NCBI RefSeq assembly: GCF_988242995.1 | Contig: NZ_OZ547043.1 | Length of the DNA: 64,000 nt | Reading direction: 5' to 3' (one strand) | Made by a program: the position numbers and the translations under genes | In this document: in pieces, positions 1 through 7,761 of the stretch | Layout: each line of letters begins with the position of its first letter | Position numbering within the stretch: the stretch's first letter is position 1 | Notes under the pieces: model-generated | The model's input: the letters and a program-made list of their open reading frames with translations, nothing else | What the model was told of the DNA's origin: nothing | The model's database searches: none

Positions 1-38
1 GTGAACAAAGATGGACATCTGTAAACGGTCTGGAAGTA

Positions 39-272
39 ATGAGTATGTTTGATGAGTATTGTCATCACATCTACCTTGATGATATCAATAAAAAAATACA
101 AGCTGAATTACCTGAAGATAAAACATTAGGTTTCAAACGTCAATTGCAATTTTTCATTTTAGGGGATGAGAAGATTAGAATATGGGTGCCACAGGGGGAA
201 TTATATTTCGCATTAATGAATGTATTGCAGATGTTCCCCCTGAAAAAAATGGTTGATGACTGGACAAGGTAA
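39..272 (+). CDS. hypothetical small protein (77 aa), AT-rich
   Basis: ORF track; preceded by GGAAG ~6 nt upstream; upstream reading frame stops at 22-24; low GC relative to core genes; no recognisable family. Confidence 0.3.
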   Translation: MSMFDEYCHHIYLDDINKKIQAELPEDKTLGFKRQLQFFILGDEKIRIWVPQGELYFALMNVLQMFPLKKMVDDWTR

Positions 273-391
273 TTTCAAATCACAGTAATGTCCATCGATT
301 ATACATGGTACGTAAACAGACTCGCACCGTTTTTGCAGAAGGTTAATGTGTCGTCTATCGAGAGCAGTCTCATATATGAAGGGGTATTAAC

Positions 392-769
392 ATGGATGAA
401 TGTTTTATAAATATCACTCCGACTTCATTGTCTTTTAAAAATGCCGAACTATCAGATTTAAGCTATAAAAATGCCAGGCTTGAACTTACCCTCATATGTC
501 CGGCGATCAAGTCAGAAGTTAAGTTATCATTTGACTGGATACATTCATTTCGTGTTACTGACGAAGGTGATTTGTTAGGAATGTCAGGAATTCACGGTAT
601 TAACCAAACGGGGATCTATAGAGTAGTGAATTCCGCCTACTTTGCATGGTTTACTATGCAAAGTTGTGAAATTTATAAAAATAATGTGATCGAGCATTAT
701 GTCATTGCCACGTCAAATGATGTTATTGATGTTTTATCAACAGTTTCTCCGCAAATACAGTATGACTAA
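392..769 (+). CDS. hypothetical protein (125 aa), AT-rich
   Basis: ORF track; strong SD-like GAAGGGG 8 nt upstream of ATG; low GC; no recognisable family. Confidence 0.4.
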   Translation: MDECFINITPTSLSFKNAELSDLSYKNARLELTLICPAIKSEVKLSFDWIHSFRVTDEGDLLGMSGIHGINQTGIYRVVNSAYFAWFTMQSCEIYKNNVIEHYVIATSNDVIDVLSTVSPQIQYD

Positions 770-884
770 AACCAGTGTCTGGTTCGCGATGGCGAGGTAG
801 AAAAAGCATCATCTTCCTTTCAGAGTGCTCCGCTTCTCATTATTATCTCACGCAGTATTCTTAAGGGAACGATAAGGAGGAACC

Positions 885-1685
885 ATGAACATTACCCCGT
901 TTCCGACGCTTTCGCCGGCAACCATAGATGCCATAAATGTTATCGGACAGTGGCTGGCGCAGGATGATTTCTCCGGTGAGGTGCCGTATCAGGCCGATTG
1001 CGTGATCCTTGCAGGCAATGCGGTTATGCCGACTATCGACGCGGCATGTAAGATTGCTCGCGATCAGCAAATTCCTTTACTGATCAGTGGTGGTATCGGT
1101 CACTCGACAACTTTTTTGTATAGCGCCATCGCACAGCATCCGCACTACAACACTATTCGCACCACTGGCAGAGCAGAAGCGACCATCCTGGCGGATATCG
1201 CTCATCAGTTCTGGCATATTCCGCATGAAAAAATCTGGATTGAAGACCAGTCAACAAACTGCGGTGAAAACGCACGCTTTAGCATCGCGCTATTGAATCA
1301 GGCCGTAGAACGAGTTCATACGGCTATCGTTGTTCAGGACCCCACCATGCAGCGGCGCACGATGGCGACGTTCCGCCGTATGACCGGGGACAATCCAGAT
1401 GCACCTCGCTGGTTAAGTTATCCCGGATTCGTTCCTCAGCTAGGAAACAACGCAGACAGTGTAATCTTTGTTAATCCGTTGCAAGGATTATGGCCGGTTG
1501 AGCGTTATCTATCACTACTCACTGGCGAGCTGCCGCGTTTACACGATGATAGCGATGGCTATGGTCCCCGCGGGCGAGATTTTATTGTTCACGTTGATTT
1601 TCCGGCAGAAGTCATCCATGCATGGCAAACGCTGAAACACGATGCGGTGCTCATCGAGGCGATGGAAAGTCGCTCGTTACGTTAA
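885..1685 (+). CDS. ydcF: DUF218-family protein YdcF
   Basis: 266 aa ORF, N-terminus [29 protein letters not shown] recognised as YdcF; GGAGG RBS upstream. Confidence 0.9.
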
Positions 1686-1881
1686 AAATTGCCCGTTTGT
1701 GAACCACTTGTTTGCAAACGGGCATAACTCCTGCCTTTTATTTCTGCCTCTTATTCCTTTTACACTTGTTTTTATGAAGCCCTTCACAGAATTGTCCTTT
1801 CATGATGCCGTCTCTATGATGATTGATGTTAATTAACAATGCATTTACCAAAAACAAACATATAAATCACAGGAGTCGCTC

Positions 1882-3321
1882 ATGTCAGTACCCGTTCAAC
1901 ATCCTATGTATATTGATGGACAGTTTGTTACCTGGCGTGGAGACGCATGGATTGATGTGGTAAACCCTGCTACAGAGGCTGTCATTTCCCGCATTCCCGA
2001 TGGTCAGGCCGAGGATGCCCGTAAGGCAATCGATGCAGCAGAACGTGCACAACCAGAATGGGAAGCGTTGCCTGCTATTGAACGCGCCAGTTGGTTGCGC
2101 AAAATCTCCGCCGGGATCCGCAAACGCGCCAGTGAAATCAGTACGCTGATTGTTGAAGAAGGGGGTAAGATCCAGCAGCTAGCTGAAGTCGAAGTGGCTT
2201 TTACTGCCGACTATATCGATTACATGGCGGAGTGGGCACGGCGTTACGAGGGCGAGATTATTCAAAGCGATCGTCCAGGAGAAAATATTCTTCTGTTTAA
2301 ACGTGCGCTTGGTGTGACTACCGGCATTCTGCCGTGGAACTTCCCGTTCTTCCTCATTGCCCGCAAAATGGCTCCCGCTCTTTTGACCGGTAATACCATC
2401 GTCATTAAACCCAGTGAATTTACGCCAAACAATGCGATTGCATTCGCCAAAATCGTCGATGAAATAGGCCTTCCGCGCGGCGTGTTTAACCTTGTTCTGG
2501 GGCGTGGTGAAACCGTTGGGCAAGAACTGGCGGGTAACCCAAAGGTCGCAATGGTCAGTATGACAGGCAGCGTCTCTGCAGGTGAAAAGATTATGGCGAC
2601 TGCGGCGAAAAACATCACCAAAGTGTGCCTGGAACTGGGGGGTAAAGCACCGGCTATCGTAATGGACGATGCCGATCTTGAACTGGCAGTCAAAGCCATC
2701 GTTGATTCACGCGTCATTAATAGTGGGCAAGTGTGTAACTGTGCAGAACGTGTTTATGTACAGAAAGGCATTTATGATCAGTTTGTCAATCGGCTGGGTG
2801 AAGCGATGCAGGCGGTGCAATTTGGTAACCCCGCTGAACGCAACGACATTGCGATGGGGCCGTTGATTAACGCCGCGGCGCTGGAAAGGGTCGAGCAAAA
2901 AGTGGCGCGCGCAGTAGAAGAAGGGGTGAGAGTGGCGTTGGGTGGCAAAGCGGTAGAGGGGAAAGGATATTATTATCCGCCGACATTGCTGCTGGATGTT
3001 CGCCAGGAAATGTCGATTATGCACGAGGAAACCTTTGGCCCGGTGCTGCCAGTGGTCGCATTTGACACGCTGGAAGAGGCTATCGCAATGGCTAATGACA
3101 GTGATTACGGCCTGACCTCATCAATCTATACCCAAAATCTGAACGTCGCGATGAAAGCCATTAAAGGGCTGAAGTTTGGTGAAACTTACATCAACCGTGA
3201 AAACTTCGAAGCTATGCAAGGATTCCACGCCGGATGGCGTAAATCCGGTATTGGCGGCGCAGATGGCAAACATGGCTTGCATGAATACCTGCAGACCCAG
3301 GTGGTTTATTTACAGTCGTAA
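1882..3321 (+). CDS. aldA: lactaldehyde dehydrogenase (NAD-dependent aldehyde dehydrogenase A)
   Basis: 479 aa; aldehyde dehydrogenase motifs (ELGGKAP, catalytic Cys region GQVCNCAERVYV); recognised as AldA. Confidence 0.95.
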   Translation: MSVPVQHPMYIDGQFVTWRGDAWIDVVNPATEAVISRIPDGQAEDARKAIDAAERAQPEWEALPAIERASWLRKISAGIRKRASEISTLIVEEGGKIQQLAEVEVAFTADYIDYMAEWARRYEGEIIQSDRPGENILLFKRALGVTTGILPWNFPFFLIARKMAPALLTGNTIVIKPSEFTPNNAIAFAKIVDEIGLPRGVFNLVLGRGETVGQELAGNPKVAMVSMTGSVSAGEKIMATAAKNITKVCLELGGKAPAIVMDDADLELAVKAIVDSRVINSGQVCNCAERVYVQKGIYDQFVNRLGEAMQAVQFGNPAERNDIAMGPLINAAALERVEQKVARAVEEGVRVALGGKAVEGKGYYYPPTLLLDVRQEMSIMHEETFGPVLPVVAFDTLEEAIAMANDSDYGLTSSIYTQNLNVAMKAIKGLKFGETYINRENFEAMQGFHAGWRKSGIGGADGKHGLHEYLQTQVVYLQS

Positions 3322-3330
3322 TGAGTGAAA

Positions 3331-3356
3331 GAGGCGGAGGCTTTTCTCTCCGCCTT
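3331..3356. terminator. bidirectional rho-independent terminator between convergent aldA and gapC
   Basis: inverted repeat AGGCGGAG...CTCCGCCT with flanking T/A runs. Confidence 0.6.
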
Positions 3357-3362
3357 TGCGCG

Positions 3363-4364
3363 TCAGAGTTTAGCGAATTTTTCGAGGGTGCGAATAAGCT
3401 GCGTGACGAAGCCATATTCGTTATCATACCAGGCGACCGTTTTCACCAGCTGTAAATCGCCCACGGCGGTAATTTCGGTTTGCGTGGCATCAAACACCGA
3501 CCCGAAATGGCTGCCAATGATATCAGAAGAGACTATTTCTTCATCGGTATAACCAAATGACTCGTTATTGTTTGTCGCCTTTTTAAGCGCGTTGTTCACC
3601 TCTTCGGCAGTCACTTTTTTTTCGAGAATAGACACCAGTTCAGTCACCGAACCTGTTTTCACGGGTACGCGTTGCGCATGACCTTTCAGTTTGCCGCTCA
3701 GTTCCGGGATCACCAGACCAATGGCTTTTGCCGCACCTGTAGTGTGGGGAATGATATTTTCTGCCGCTGCACGTGAAGCGCGTAGATCTTTACCTCGCGG
3801 ACCATCCACCAGTGACTGAGTGCCGGTATAGGCATGAATGGTCGTCATCGTGCCGACTTCTATTCCGAAACTGTCGTGCAAGGCTTTGGCCATCGGTGCA
3901 AGACAGTTAGTGGTGCATGACGCCACGGAAACAATGGTGTCGTTGCCATCCAGAGTGTCGTCATTGACGTTATAAACGATAGTTTTCATTTCACCGGCAG
4001 GGGCGGAAATCAACACCTTCTTCGCACCAGCATCAAGATGCGCCTGCGATTTCTCGGCGGAGGTATAAAAGCCAGTACATTCGACAATAATTTCTGCCCC
4101 TTTCGCTTTCCACGGAATATTTTTAGCCTCTTTTTCGGCGTAAACCGCGATACTTTTCCCATCAACGATAAGTGAATCTTCCGTAAAATCAACGCTCCAG
4201 GGGAACGGTCCGTAGTTTGAATCATGTTTCAGCAGGTAGGCGAGAATTTTTGGGGAAGTGAGATCATTAATAGCGACAATGTCTATGTTGCTTTTGACTT
4301 CAAGTAATCGACGCAACACCAGTCGACCGATACGACCAAAACCGTTAATACCAACTTTACTCAT
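3363..4364 (-). CDS. gapC: glyceraldehyde-3-phosphate dehydrogenase GapC (intact reading frame)
   Basis: 333 aa uninterrupted ORF; N-terminal NAD-binding motif INGFGRIGR; active-site region SCTTNCLAP. Confidence 0.9.
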
Positions 4365-4552
4365 GGTCTTCTCCTGTCAGGAACGTTCGGATGAAAATTG
4401 ATCCTTTCCAGGCTTAGACCAGGATGGCGGGATGGGCAATCTACATTCTTGCCGTGAAACGTAACGTACTGAAAACGGGTGAACAATATTTAATGAAATT
4501 TTAAGAAAAGCCCGTTATGTTAACGGAAAATTATGTTAAAGCAGGAAATGTT

Positions 4553-5083
4553 ATGGGAAATAAATACTCAAGGTTACAAATCAGCATTCACTGGCTGGTC
4601 TTTATGCTGGTTATCGCAGCGTATTGCGCAATGGAGTTTCGGGGTTTCTTCCCACGTAGCGATCGGCCACTCATCAACATGATTCATGTTTCCTGTGGCA
4701 TATCAATTCTCGTGCTGATGGTCGTTCGTCTTTTGTTAAGGCTGAAATACCCAACCCCGCCGATTATACCTAAGCCAAAACCGATGATGACGGGACTGGC
4801 GCATTTGGGCCATTTGGTGATTTATCTCCTGTTTATTGCGCTGCCAGTGATTGGTTTGGTGATGATGTATAACCGGGGCAACCCGTGGTTTGCGTTTGGT
4901 TTGACGATGCCTTATGCATCAGAGGCCAATTTCGAACGGGTTGATAGCTTAAAGTCGTGGCATGAAATGCTGGCGAATCTGGGATATTTTGTCATCGGGT
5001 TGCACGCTGCGGCTGCACTGGCACACCACTATTTCTGGAAGGACAACACACTTCTACGCATGATGCCGCGTAAACGTTCCTGA
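4553..5083 (+). CDS. cybB: cytochrome b561
   Basis: ORF 4517..5083; likely native start at internal ATG (MGNKYSRLQISIHWLVF...) giving ~176 aa multi-TM protein. Confidence 0.85.
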   Translation: MGNKYSRLQISIHWLVFMLVIAAYCAMEFRGFFPRSDRPLINMIHVSCGISILVLMVVRLLLRLKYPTPPIIPKPKPMMTGLAHLGHLVIYLLFIALPVIGLVMMYNRGNPWFAFGLTMPYASEANFERVDSLKSWHEMLANLGYFVIGLHAAAALAHHYFWKDNTLLRMMPRKRS

Positions 5084-5093
5084 AGGATATTTA

Positions 5094-5157
5094 AAGAAAA
5101 CGCCTGTACTAAAACCGACCCGTGGTACAGGCGAAGAATACGGGTCTACATCGGAAG
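5094..5157 (-). ncRNA. rydC: RydC small regulatory RNA
   Basis: reverse complement reads CTTCCGATGTAGACCCGTATTCTTCGCCTGTACCACGGGTCGGTTTTAGTACAGGCGTTTTCTT, recognised as RydC; lies between cybB and ydcA. Confidence 0.75.
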
Positions 5158-5327
5158 CGCCTATTATATTTATTTGTATGACAAATAAAACCATAATCCT
5201 TATCCATACGTCCATCTGGCTTATCTTTAATCAATTCACCCGATCTTTGATCTCATCAACGGTATCAAAATAAACCAGCGTATAACGTTCAAATCGAACA
5301 TAAGATTCGATAAACCATGGAGGTTAT

Positions 5328-5501
5328 ATGAAAAAACTGGCACTCATCTTGGTTATAGGAGCGCTTGTTTCCTTTTTTGCCGATGCCGGGCGCAAACCCT
5401 GTTCTGGTTCGAAAGGGGGGATCTCACACTGTACGGCAGGCGGCAAATTTGTCTGTAATGATGGTTCTATTAGTGCATCGAAAAAAACATGCACTAACTG
5501 A
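5328..5501 (+). CDS. ydcA: small secreted/lipoprotein-like protein YdcA (57 aa)
   Basis: ATG at 5328 with GGAGG RBS; MKKLALILVIGALVSFFADAGRKPCSGSKGG...; below ORF-track size cutoff. Confidence 0.8.
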   Translation: MKKLALILVIGALVSFFADAGRKPCSGSKGGISHCTAGGKFVCNDGSISASKKTCTN

Positions 5502-5572
5502 AGTGTAAAAGGGGTGCCATGAGAAAATGAATCTGCTAGTCAGATGCGCGGGGAAAATCCCCGCGCTTGCCC

Positions 5573-5764
<192 letters not shown>

Positions 5765-5780
<16 letters not shown>

Positions 5781-5830
5781 TCGTTGGCCTCGGTTGATAG
5801 AAATATCGGTCGGGGCCTTCGTCTTTCTGA
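5765..5830 (+). ncRNA. sokB: putative SokB antisense RNA region (boundaries approximate)
   Basis: expected antisense to the mokB start/leader by analogy to hok/sok loci; not delimited from sequence alone. Confidence 0.25.
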
Positions 5831-6054
5831 TTCCCGGTTAGCCTGAAAACAGAAAGTCTCAGGCACCCGTGAGCATCCTATGTGGTTTCCTTAGGGACGA
5901 AAATAATCACCTGACGAAATTGCGTGCTGTTTTCCAGAATTTTTCGTCATTCGGGTTAGCCAGTTTAGCCATTCGTTACTCTCTTCATTCCAATAGCATT
6001 AATTTTCTCTGCAATAATTGTTGTAAAAATGTGACGCAAAGAGGTTTTTGGTCA

Positions 6055-6081
6055 TAAGTAATTATCGTCAAGTGCCGATGA
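6055..6081 (+). promoter_or_regulatory. sigma28 (FliA)-type promoter upstream of trg
   Basis: TAAGTAAT-N11-GCCGATGA matches the TAAAGTTT-N11-GCCGATAA class 3 flagellar/chemotaxis promoter consensus, ~40 nt upstream of trg ATG. Confidence 0.5.
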
Positions 6082-6120
6082 CTTTCTATCAGGAGTAAAC
6101 CTGGACGAGAGACAACGGTA

Positions 6121-7761
6121 ATGAATACAACTCCCTCACAGCGATTAGGTTTTTTGCATCACATCAGGCTGGTTCCGTTATTTGCCTGCATTCTTGGCGG
6201 TATCTTAGTTCTATTCGCATTAAGTTCAGCTCTGGCTGGCTATTTCCTCTGGCAGGCCGATCGCGATCAGCGTGATGTTACTGCGGAGATTGAGATTCGG
6301 ACCGGGTTAGCGAACAGTTCAGATTTTTTGCGTTCAGCCCGGATCAATATGATTCAGGCTGGTGCTGCGAGTCGTATTGCTGAAATGGAAGCAATGAAGC
6401 GAAATATTGCGCAAGCCGAATCGGAGATTAAACAGTCGCAGCAAGGTTATCGTGCTTATCAGAATCGGTCGGTGAAAACACCTGCTGATGAAGCCCTCGA
6501 CACTGAATTAAATCAACGCTTCCAGGCTTATATCACGGGTATGCAACCGATGTTGAAATATGCCAAAAATGGCATGTTTGAAGCGATTATCAATCATGAA
6601 AGTGAGCAGATCCGACCGCTGGATAATGCTTATACCGATATTTTGAGCAAAGCCGTTAAGATACGTAGCGCCAGAGCCAACCAACTGGCGGAACTGGCCC
6701 ATCAGCGCACCCGTCTGGGTGGGATGTTCATGATTGGCGCGTTTGTGCTTGCCCTGGTCATGACGCTGATAACATTTATGGTGCTACGTCGGATCGTCAT
6801 TCGTCCACTGCAACATGCCGCACAACGGATTGAAAAAATCGCCAGTGGCGATCTGACGATGAATGATGAACCGGCGGGTCGTAATGAAATCGGTCGCTTA
6901 AGTCGTCATTTACAGCAAATGCAGCATTCACTGGGGATGACAGTAGGGACTGTTCGACAGGGTGCGGAAGAGATTTATCGTGGCACCAGCGAAATTTCAG
7001 CTGGCAATGCGGACCTGTCATCTCGCACCGAAGAACAAGCGGCGGCTATCGAACAAACTGCCGCCAGCATGGAGCAACTTACTGCGACGGTGAAACAGAA
7101 TGCGGATAACGCGCATCATGCCAGCAAACTGGCGCAAGAGGCTTCTATTAAAGCCAGCGATGGCGGGCAGACGGTTTCCGGTGTAGTAAAAACGATGGGC
7201 GCTATCTCCACGAGTTCGAAGAAAATTTCTGAGATCACCGCCGTCATCAACAGTATTGCTTTCCAGACGAATATTCTGGCACTGAATGCTGCCGTTGAAG
7301 CCGCGCGAGCGGGTGAGCAAGGGCGTGGATTTGCCGTTGTCGCCAGCGAAGTACGGACACTCGCAAGCCGCAGCGCTCAGGCGGCGAAAGAGATTGAAGG
7401 CTTGATCAGTGAATCAGTCAGGTTAATTGACCTGGGGTCGGATGAGGTGGCAACGGCAGGGAAAACCATGAGCACTATTGTTGATGCCGTCGCGAGTGTC
7501 ACACATATCATGCAGGAAATCGCCGCCGCCTCGGATGAACAAAGTAGAGGCATAACTCAGGTTAGCCAGGCGATTTCTGAAATGGATAAGGTGACGCAAC
7601 AGAATGCTTCTCTGGTAGAAGAGGCCTCAGCGGCGGCGGTGTCCCTTGAAGAACAGGCGGCACGATTAACTGAGGCGGTGGACGTATTCCGTCTGAACAA
7701 ACATTCTGTGTTGGCAGAACCTCGCGGAGCGGGTGAACAAGTTAGTTTCGCTACGGTGTGA
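6121..7761 (+). CDS. trg: methyl-accepting chemotaxis protein III (ribose/galactose sensor)
   Basis: 546 aa; two TM segments, HAMP, conserved MCP signalling domain with methylation-site heptads; recognised as Trg. Confidence 0.95.

Follow-up and report, generated by a model that had tools for sequence, protein, structure and literature searches.

The first 0.8 kb of the window, i.e., of the 64,000-nt stretch of DNA analyzed here, raises the question of what a group of small, AT-rich and unnamed genes does next to the core gene ydcF (DUF218; 885..1685, plus strand), which lies outside the group and gives its context. The initial annotation had read the interval as a two-gene cassette consisting of a 77-aa and a 125-aa ORF. 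We consider it likely, at a probability of roughly 75%, that window 1-812 forms the ydcF-proximal two thirds of a ~1.5-kb islet of orphan immunity genes directed against CDI and Rhs/T6SS toxins.

GC content is 35-38% in window 1-800 versus 48-55% in ydcF and aldA, i.e., the compositional contrast to the core genes that had drawn attention to this stretch is real. The islet as a whole (~36% GC versus ~50% in its flanks) measures ~1.5 kb and spans the hrpA-ydcF intergenic region from the hrpA terminator to the ydcF leader. It comprises a truncated ORF-A, ORF-B (112 aa), ORF-C (149 aa) and ORF-D (125 aa). The window edge leaves out ~700 bp of it, namely ORF-B, the first half of ORF-C and the ORF-A remnant, up to the hrpA terminator. 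That is, the cassette is AT-rich and accessory as proposed but holds these four members rather than two, and the suggestion that it is the tail of a larger locus holds insofar as the islet continues upstream, although only by those ~700 bp and not into any large locus. ORF-A is reduced to a 44-codon remnant in the window's lineage and is intact, with 141 aa, in O157:H7. The best match to window 1-6000 is strain MS14384, which encodes the same three upstream proteins and is identical over this range apart from an IS150 insertion further downstream of the islet. This IS150 lies between hokB and trg in MS14384, 746 and SCU-109 (L032 8322-9691) and is absent from window ~5900-6000.

ORF-C enters the window with its C-terminal 90 codons (1..272, plus strand), where its frame is open to the window edge (base 3). 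In identical genomes it is a 149-aa CDS (WP_001314706) whose start codon lies 177 nt outside the window, on its 5' side. In these genomes, which match the window at 100% identity, the 77-aa ORF at 39-272 makes up residues 73-149 of this protein; it is no gene of its own but the C-terminal half of ORF-C, cut by the window edge. The ORF-C family alignment begins at the N-terminus of the 149-aa protein. An upstream frame that had been taken to terminate at 22-24 turns out to be an out-of-frame reading inside ORF-C, and this position is not the end of any ORF of at least 30 aa.

ORF-C and ORF-D are separated by a spacer of 119 nt (273..391, plus strand, as read from the sequence). A Shine-Dalgarno-like AAGGGG at 379-384, 7 nt before the ORF-D ATG, agrees with the ribosome-binding site that the initial annotation had called plausible. 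The 40-aa ORF at 288-410 in this spacer is probably not a gene; it has no annotation in any of the records examined. ORF-D itself (392..769, plus strand; 125 aa, WP_000343026) is intact. The right end of the variable islet (770..812, plus strand) was delimited by a four-way alignment, in which the window and O157 alleles were compared with K-12 and the SMI1 variant, as well as by a local alignment of the K-12 spacer, and sequence in common with islet-free genomes, i.e., the ydcF leader, starts at ~813. Directly 3' of the ORF-D stop codon we observe an inverted repeat, AACCAG-tgt-CTGGTT (770-784), which is followed by no T-run and is also kept in the SMI1/KNR4 variant. No promoter for the islet was found above chance. 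The first ydcF codons vary among genomes that are 100% identical across the islet (SPATIDA...GEVPYQ versus STATIDA...GEMPYQ, at window 885-990 versus L001 20885-20990), and these codon differences suggest a recombination breakpoint at or near the right border of the islet.

The hrpA-ydcF site differs strongly among strains, i.e., it holds the islet, an SMI1/KNR4 cassette or neither of them. The islet is present in 582-586 of 5426 complete E. coli genomes (~11%) and falls into two allele groups of ~92% identity, one of which is the O157:H7 allele. No second copy of the islet genes was found elsewhere in complete E. coli genomes. K-12 and most other E. coli show a short, unrelated spacer at this position, such that the interval is an accessory element beside core genes, as first described, and not core sequence conserved in all E. 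coli. A supposed remnant of the ORF-D 3' end within the K-12 spacer was dropped, since local alignment compared to shuffles gave no support for it. In 186 of the 5426 genomes, the site carries an alternative cassette on the opposite strand, which in E. coli DETEC-S586 (L002 820-1610) replaces window ~1-716. Its two proteins are a 164-aa member of the SMI1/KNR4 (SUKH) family and one of 99 aa without family, and the cassette is adjoined by a 53-bp remnant of the ORF-D 3' end. Given that a SUKH-family gene occupies the site in these 186 genomes, the site collects immunity-type genes, although ORF-C and ORF-D are unrelated in sequence to the SMI1/KNR4 (SUKH) immunity proteins. Neither islet nor SMI1/KNR4 cassette is found in ~86% of the complete E. 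coli genomes.

In E. albertii, ORF-B, ORF-C and ORF-D are located at the same site and in the same order (62%, 61% and 74% protein identity, respectively), while the first gene is a different one and encodes DUF7021 with or without DUF2262. Orthologs of ORF-B, ORF-C and ORF-D with 61-74% identity are also seen in L018 (5152-6902) and L013 (4146-6378), both of which are syntenic with the E. albertii locus L027, and ORF-C is a pseudogene, broken into three frames, in both L013 and L014. Between E. coli and E. albertii, dS is 0.66-1.1 for the islet genes compared to 0.92 for ydcF and 0.56 for the 3' end of hrpA. Judged by these values, old vertical inheritance with frequent loss appears to fit better than a recent import. 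We also found a natural fusion of 126 aa (P0055), which joins the N-terminus of ORF-A to the C-terminus of ORF-D and thus points to a strain that has lost ORF-B and ORF-C by deletion.

The islet ORFs are real coding genes, since three same-strand ORFs of at least 110 aa were obtained in none of 1000 shuffles of the 1.5-kb islet DNA and since their dN/dS is below 1, with 0.27-0.60 when the two E. coli alleles are compared and 0.15-0.42 in relation to E. albertii. For the flanks, dN/dS is 0.08 (ydcF) and 0.01 (3' part of hrpA), i.e., the islet genes are under weaker constraint than the adjoining core genes. This relaxation would also agree with the main alternative account, according to which the genes descend from immunity genes and are now the decaying remains of an ancient CDI/Rhs locus, without function and kept only by drift. 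In line with such decay, the window's lineage has no more than a pseudogene of ORF-A, some E. albertii carry a frameshift in ORF-C, P0055 documents a deletion between ORF-A and ORF-D, and the large majority of complete E. coli genomes lack islet and SMI1/KNR4 cassette alike. On the other hand, ORF-B, ORF-C and ORF-D are intact in 584 genomes and in E. albertii. Neutral decay would have destroyed their reading frames over a dS of ~0.7-1.1, a distance for which dN/dS is 0.15-0.42. We thus regard decay as unlikely, albeit not negligible.

The assignment to orphan immunity genes builds on the genomic neighborhoods of homologs and on predicted folds. Scans of ORF-A to ORF-D against Pfam, NCBIfam, PADLOC and PHROGs gave nothing usable; neither ORF-C nor ORF-D matches a Pfam, NCBIfam or PADLOC model, and ORF-D does not match any curated CdiI or Imm model. 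The two proteins of the window are thus as unrecognizable by standard family libraries as had been stated. PDB searches with sequences and profiles of ORF-B, ORF-C and ORF-D found no relatives.

For ORF-D, we obtained 55 homologous representatives, and all that carry an organism name belong to the Enterobacterales. In Duffyella gerundensis (L005-L007), the homolog P0024 (46% identity to ORF-D) starts 6 nt after a cdiA gene that carries Fil_haemagg_2 and PT-VENN domains, and this pair is found in a complete CDI locus as well as in an orphan module within a conjugation-gene cluster. Long orphan cdiA-CT/cdiI arrays in Cedecea and in one metagenome contig contain further homologs, as do Rhs orphan arrays, and a Cronobacter plasmid carries one that is flanked by genes for "immunity 42" and MafI. 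The CdiI-type placement 3' of the cdiA toxin end is seen for the homologs only; the copy in the window is an orphan.

The toxin domain of the Duffyella CdiA comprises the last 92 residues and has no relative in Pfam or the PDB. It shares 40% identity with the terminal part of a 150-aa cassette ORF of Neisseria gonorrhoeae, which adjoins larger ORFs with a common repeated N-terminal region. This gonococcal cassette is followed after 3 nt by a 133-aa protein that shows a weak hhalign link to the ORF-D family (E 3e-4, 39% probability, 79 columns) and has the motifs FRVxDE, YxxW and IDVLS in the same order as that family. The whole arrangement, i.e., the toxin-like 150-aa and the immunity-like 133-aa ORF, is unannotated (L031 3824-4681). 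Its record is labelled as a plasmid, measures 2.17 Mb, is hardly annotated and is evidently a chromosome.

ORF-D has no hydrophobic N-terminus, signal peptide or membrane segment (hydropathy maximum of 0.87, 19-residue Kyte-Doolittle). Its AF2 model is confident, and the best match of the predicted fold is PIM7, a solved immunity protein of a polymorphic toxin, with a resemblance at the level of fold only. Based on the context of its homologs, we predict ORF-D to be a CdiI-type orphan immunity protein.

For ORF-C, the indexed protein search returned nothing outside Escherichia. A full HMMER scan revealed a family of 79 cluster representatives of ~140 aa; for the genome scan we used a narrow alignment, as the wide alignments were too diverged. 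One hit, P0097 (1638 aa), was discarded as spurious, i.e., it is a repetitive eukaryotic-type protein that matches over 33 residues. In L016, a 1500-aa PAAR-Rhs gene that follows Hcp and VgrG overlaps at its 3' end with the gene of the homolog P0079 (42% identity to ORF-C; Rhs at 2560-7062, homolog at 7001-7480), and P0079 is also found in an Rhs orphan array of another enterobacterial chromosome. In Candidatus Endobugula sertula, a homolog with 41% identity lies 10 nt after a 1524-aa Rhs gene (L030; Rhs at 1276-5850, homolog at 5860-6291).

The C-terminal domains of these two Rhs proteins have no relatives in Pfam or the PDB but are 43% identical to each other over ~105 residues. Because the two domains are homologous, toxin and neighbor are conserved as a pair across distant taxa, and the pairing of this Rhs-CT with the ORF-C homolog is the strongest evidence for a putative cognate relationship. 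In Limnobaculum, an ORF-C homolog comes third among the small genes that follow cdiA, and P0080 unites a CdiI_3 immunity domain and an ORF-C-like domain in one fusion protein. Among the non-Escherichia contexts of ORF-C that were examined, four are toxin or immunity loci (L015, L016, L028, L030) and three have no toxin nearby (L017, L020, L029); L023 and L025 are too short to judge. As for ORF-D, only the homologs are placed next to a toxin, here in the RhsI-type position at the rhs 3' end, and the copy in the window is an orphan. We also observe that, in another enterobacterium, homologs of ORF-C and ORF-D share Rhs orphan arrays and lie no more than a few kb apart there (L015 5259-5645 and 7001-7480; L016 7001-7480 and 10352-10756), an arrangement that resembles the adjacent position of the two genes in E. 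coli. When E. coli genomes were searched at the DNA level with the toxin-immunity segment of L016, only the Rhs core was matched.

The AF2 model of ORF-C (pLDDT 91.3) shows a PH-like fold. This fold is generic, and no solved immunity relative of it was found. As with ORF-D, there is no hydrophobic segment, signal peptide or membrane segment. The neighborhoods of its homologs lead us to predict that ORF-C is an Rhs-type (RhsI-like) orphan immunity protein. ORF-A and ORF-B form a tight operon with ORF-C and show no toxin-linked context. No homologs of ORF-B outside Escherichia were found in the indexed protein search, and a profile comparison of ORF-B with ORF-D gave no sign of a relationship.

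Since the genes are small, AT-rich, strain-variable and tightly packed (with 14 nt shared by ORF-B and ORF-C), they could also be taken for a toxin-antitoxin module, an anti-phage defence system or the cargo of a prophage or mobile element. We consider this very improbable, given that PADLOC, Pfam and NCBIfam yield no match and PHROGs no meaningful one, that no integrase, transposase or att-like repeats were found at the islet borders, and that plasmids yielded no homologs of ORF-A, ORF-B or ORF-C. Furthermore, those homolog contexts that have recognizable neighbors are polymorphic-toxin loci and not defence islands. Chance open frames in AT-rich intergenic DNA, for which only the lack of database names speaks, can practically be dismissed in view of the shuffles, the dN/dS values, dozens of diverged homologs and the confident AF2 models.

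We return to the probable islet of orphan immunity genes, in which ORF-C and ORF-D are adjacent and which, in its whole length in identical genomes, shows no toxin gene between hrpA and ydcF. Because the islet has no toxin gene of its own, it would provide protection against the attack of others and not against self-intoxication. As small, soluble proteins without hydrophobic segments, ORF-C and ORF-D would both act in the cytoplasm. Each would bind, and thereby inhibit, the C-terminal toxin domains of one family, which are delivered there by the T6SS/Rhs or the contact-dependent inhibition system of a competitor. We infer toxin binding, protection and the identity of the neutralized toxins from the toxin-linked homologs, and at 40-46% identity to these the specificity may differ.

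Both partner toxins carry a linker directly upstream of the toxin domain, which can be summarized as NP(N/M)(V/G)…LT(D/E)(E/K)EK.ELGG.G.G.P.GWGP.DEE. The respective sequences, NPNVGKDLTDEEKNELGGAGSGSPNGWGPQDEE and TPNMGQSLTEKEKAELGGTGAGTPGGWGPEDEE, are nearly identical between the Rhs toxin (L016 6700-6800) and the CdiA toxin (L007 7400-7560), and the toxin domains that follow are unrelated. The linker is also present in the CdiA tRNase constructs 5J5V, 5J43 and 8ZYC, and was the sole match in the PDB sequence searches. It looks like a delivery module exchanged between two secretion routes, and its presence in solved CdiA tRNase constructs would fit toxins that are imported into the cytoplasm.

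A more far-reaching reading, which we put forward tentatively and at somewhat less than even odds, is that ORF-C and ORF-D represent two immunity families not catalogued so far, and that each family is paired with a likewise uncatalogued toxin domain of ~90-110 aa (in Rhs for ORF-C; in CdiA and the gonococcal cassette for ORF-D). The hrpA-ydcF site would then be an ancient slot that has been inherited vertically since before the split of E. coli and E. albertii and was repeatedly lost and re-stocked, e.g., with the SMI1/KNR4 cassette. If true, these particular toxins would have exerted a long-standing selection on Escherichia.

The assignment provides a testable function for hypothetical genes found in ~11% of sequenced E. 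coli, including O157:H7. It also proposes two unnamed immunity families, together with their partner toxin domains, that have no relative by sequence in Pfam or the PDB, and marks hrpA-ydcF as a site where Escherichia may keep or swap defences against contact-dependent killing. Orphan immunity genes and immunity islets are already an established concept, such that the gain is incremental.

With regard to known systems, the fold match of ORF-D leads to PT7/PIM7, a polymorphic toxin-immunity pair from Bacillus cereus (PDB 8OWU; bioRxiv 10.1101/2021.10.19.465003). In the PT7 DNase, H47 was mutated (H47A) as a predicted catalytic-site residue. PIM7 and ORF-D share a sequence identity of only 13%, the PDB sequence and profile search with ORF-D did not match the 8OWU chains, and the toxin that is paired with the ORF-D homologs contains, in contrast to PT7, no histidine. 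Given the missing histidine and the lack of a sequence match to 8OWU, the targets of this toxin probably differ from those of PT7.

CDI and Rhs loci are known to be followed by orphan cdiA-CT/cdiI and rhs-CT/rhsI modules (Poole et al. 2011, PMC3150448), and homologs of ORF-C and ORF-D sit in such arrays. In contrast to these modules, the genes of the window are accompanied by no toxin fragment and show no linkage to a cdiBAI or rhs locus. Among described cases, the nearest is a 14-gene islet of Salmonella Typhi with a putative role in T6SS/CDI immunity (Barretto & Fowler 2020, PMC7400221). Both islets are chromosomal, enterobacterial and lineage-variable, and both owe their proposed function, for most of their genes an orphan immunity to T6SS and CDI toxins, to the context of homologs. 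The Typhi host does not encode these toxins, and the same may hold for the hosts of the E. coli islet. They differ in that the E. coli islet has 3-4 genes within 1.5 kb, is located between hrpA and ydcF and is made up of families without Pfam models. Furthermore, the E. coli islet appears to be old and vertically inherited, i.e., it is syntenic in E. albertii and has a dS similar to that of its flanking genes.
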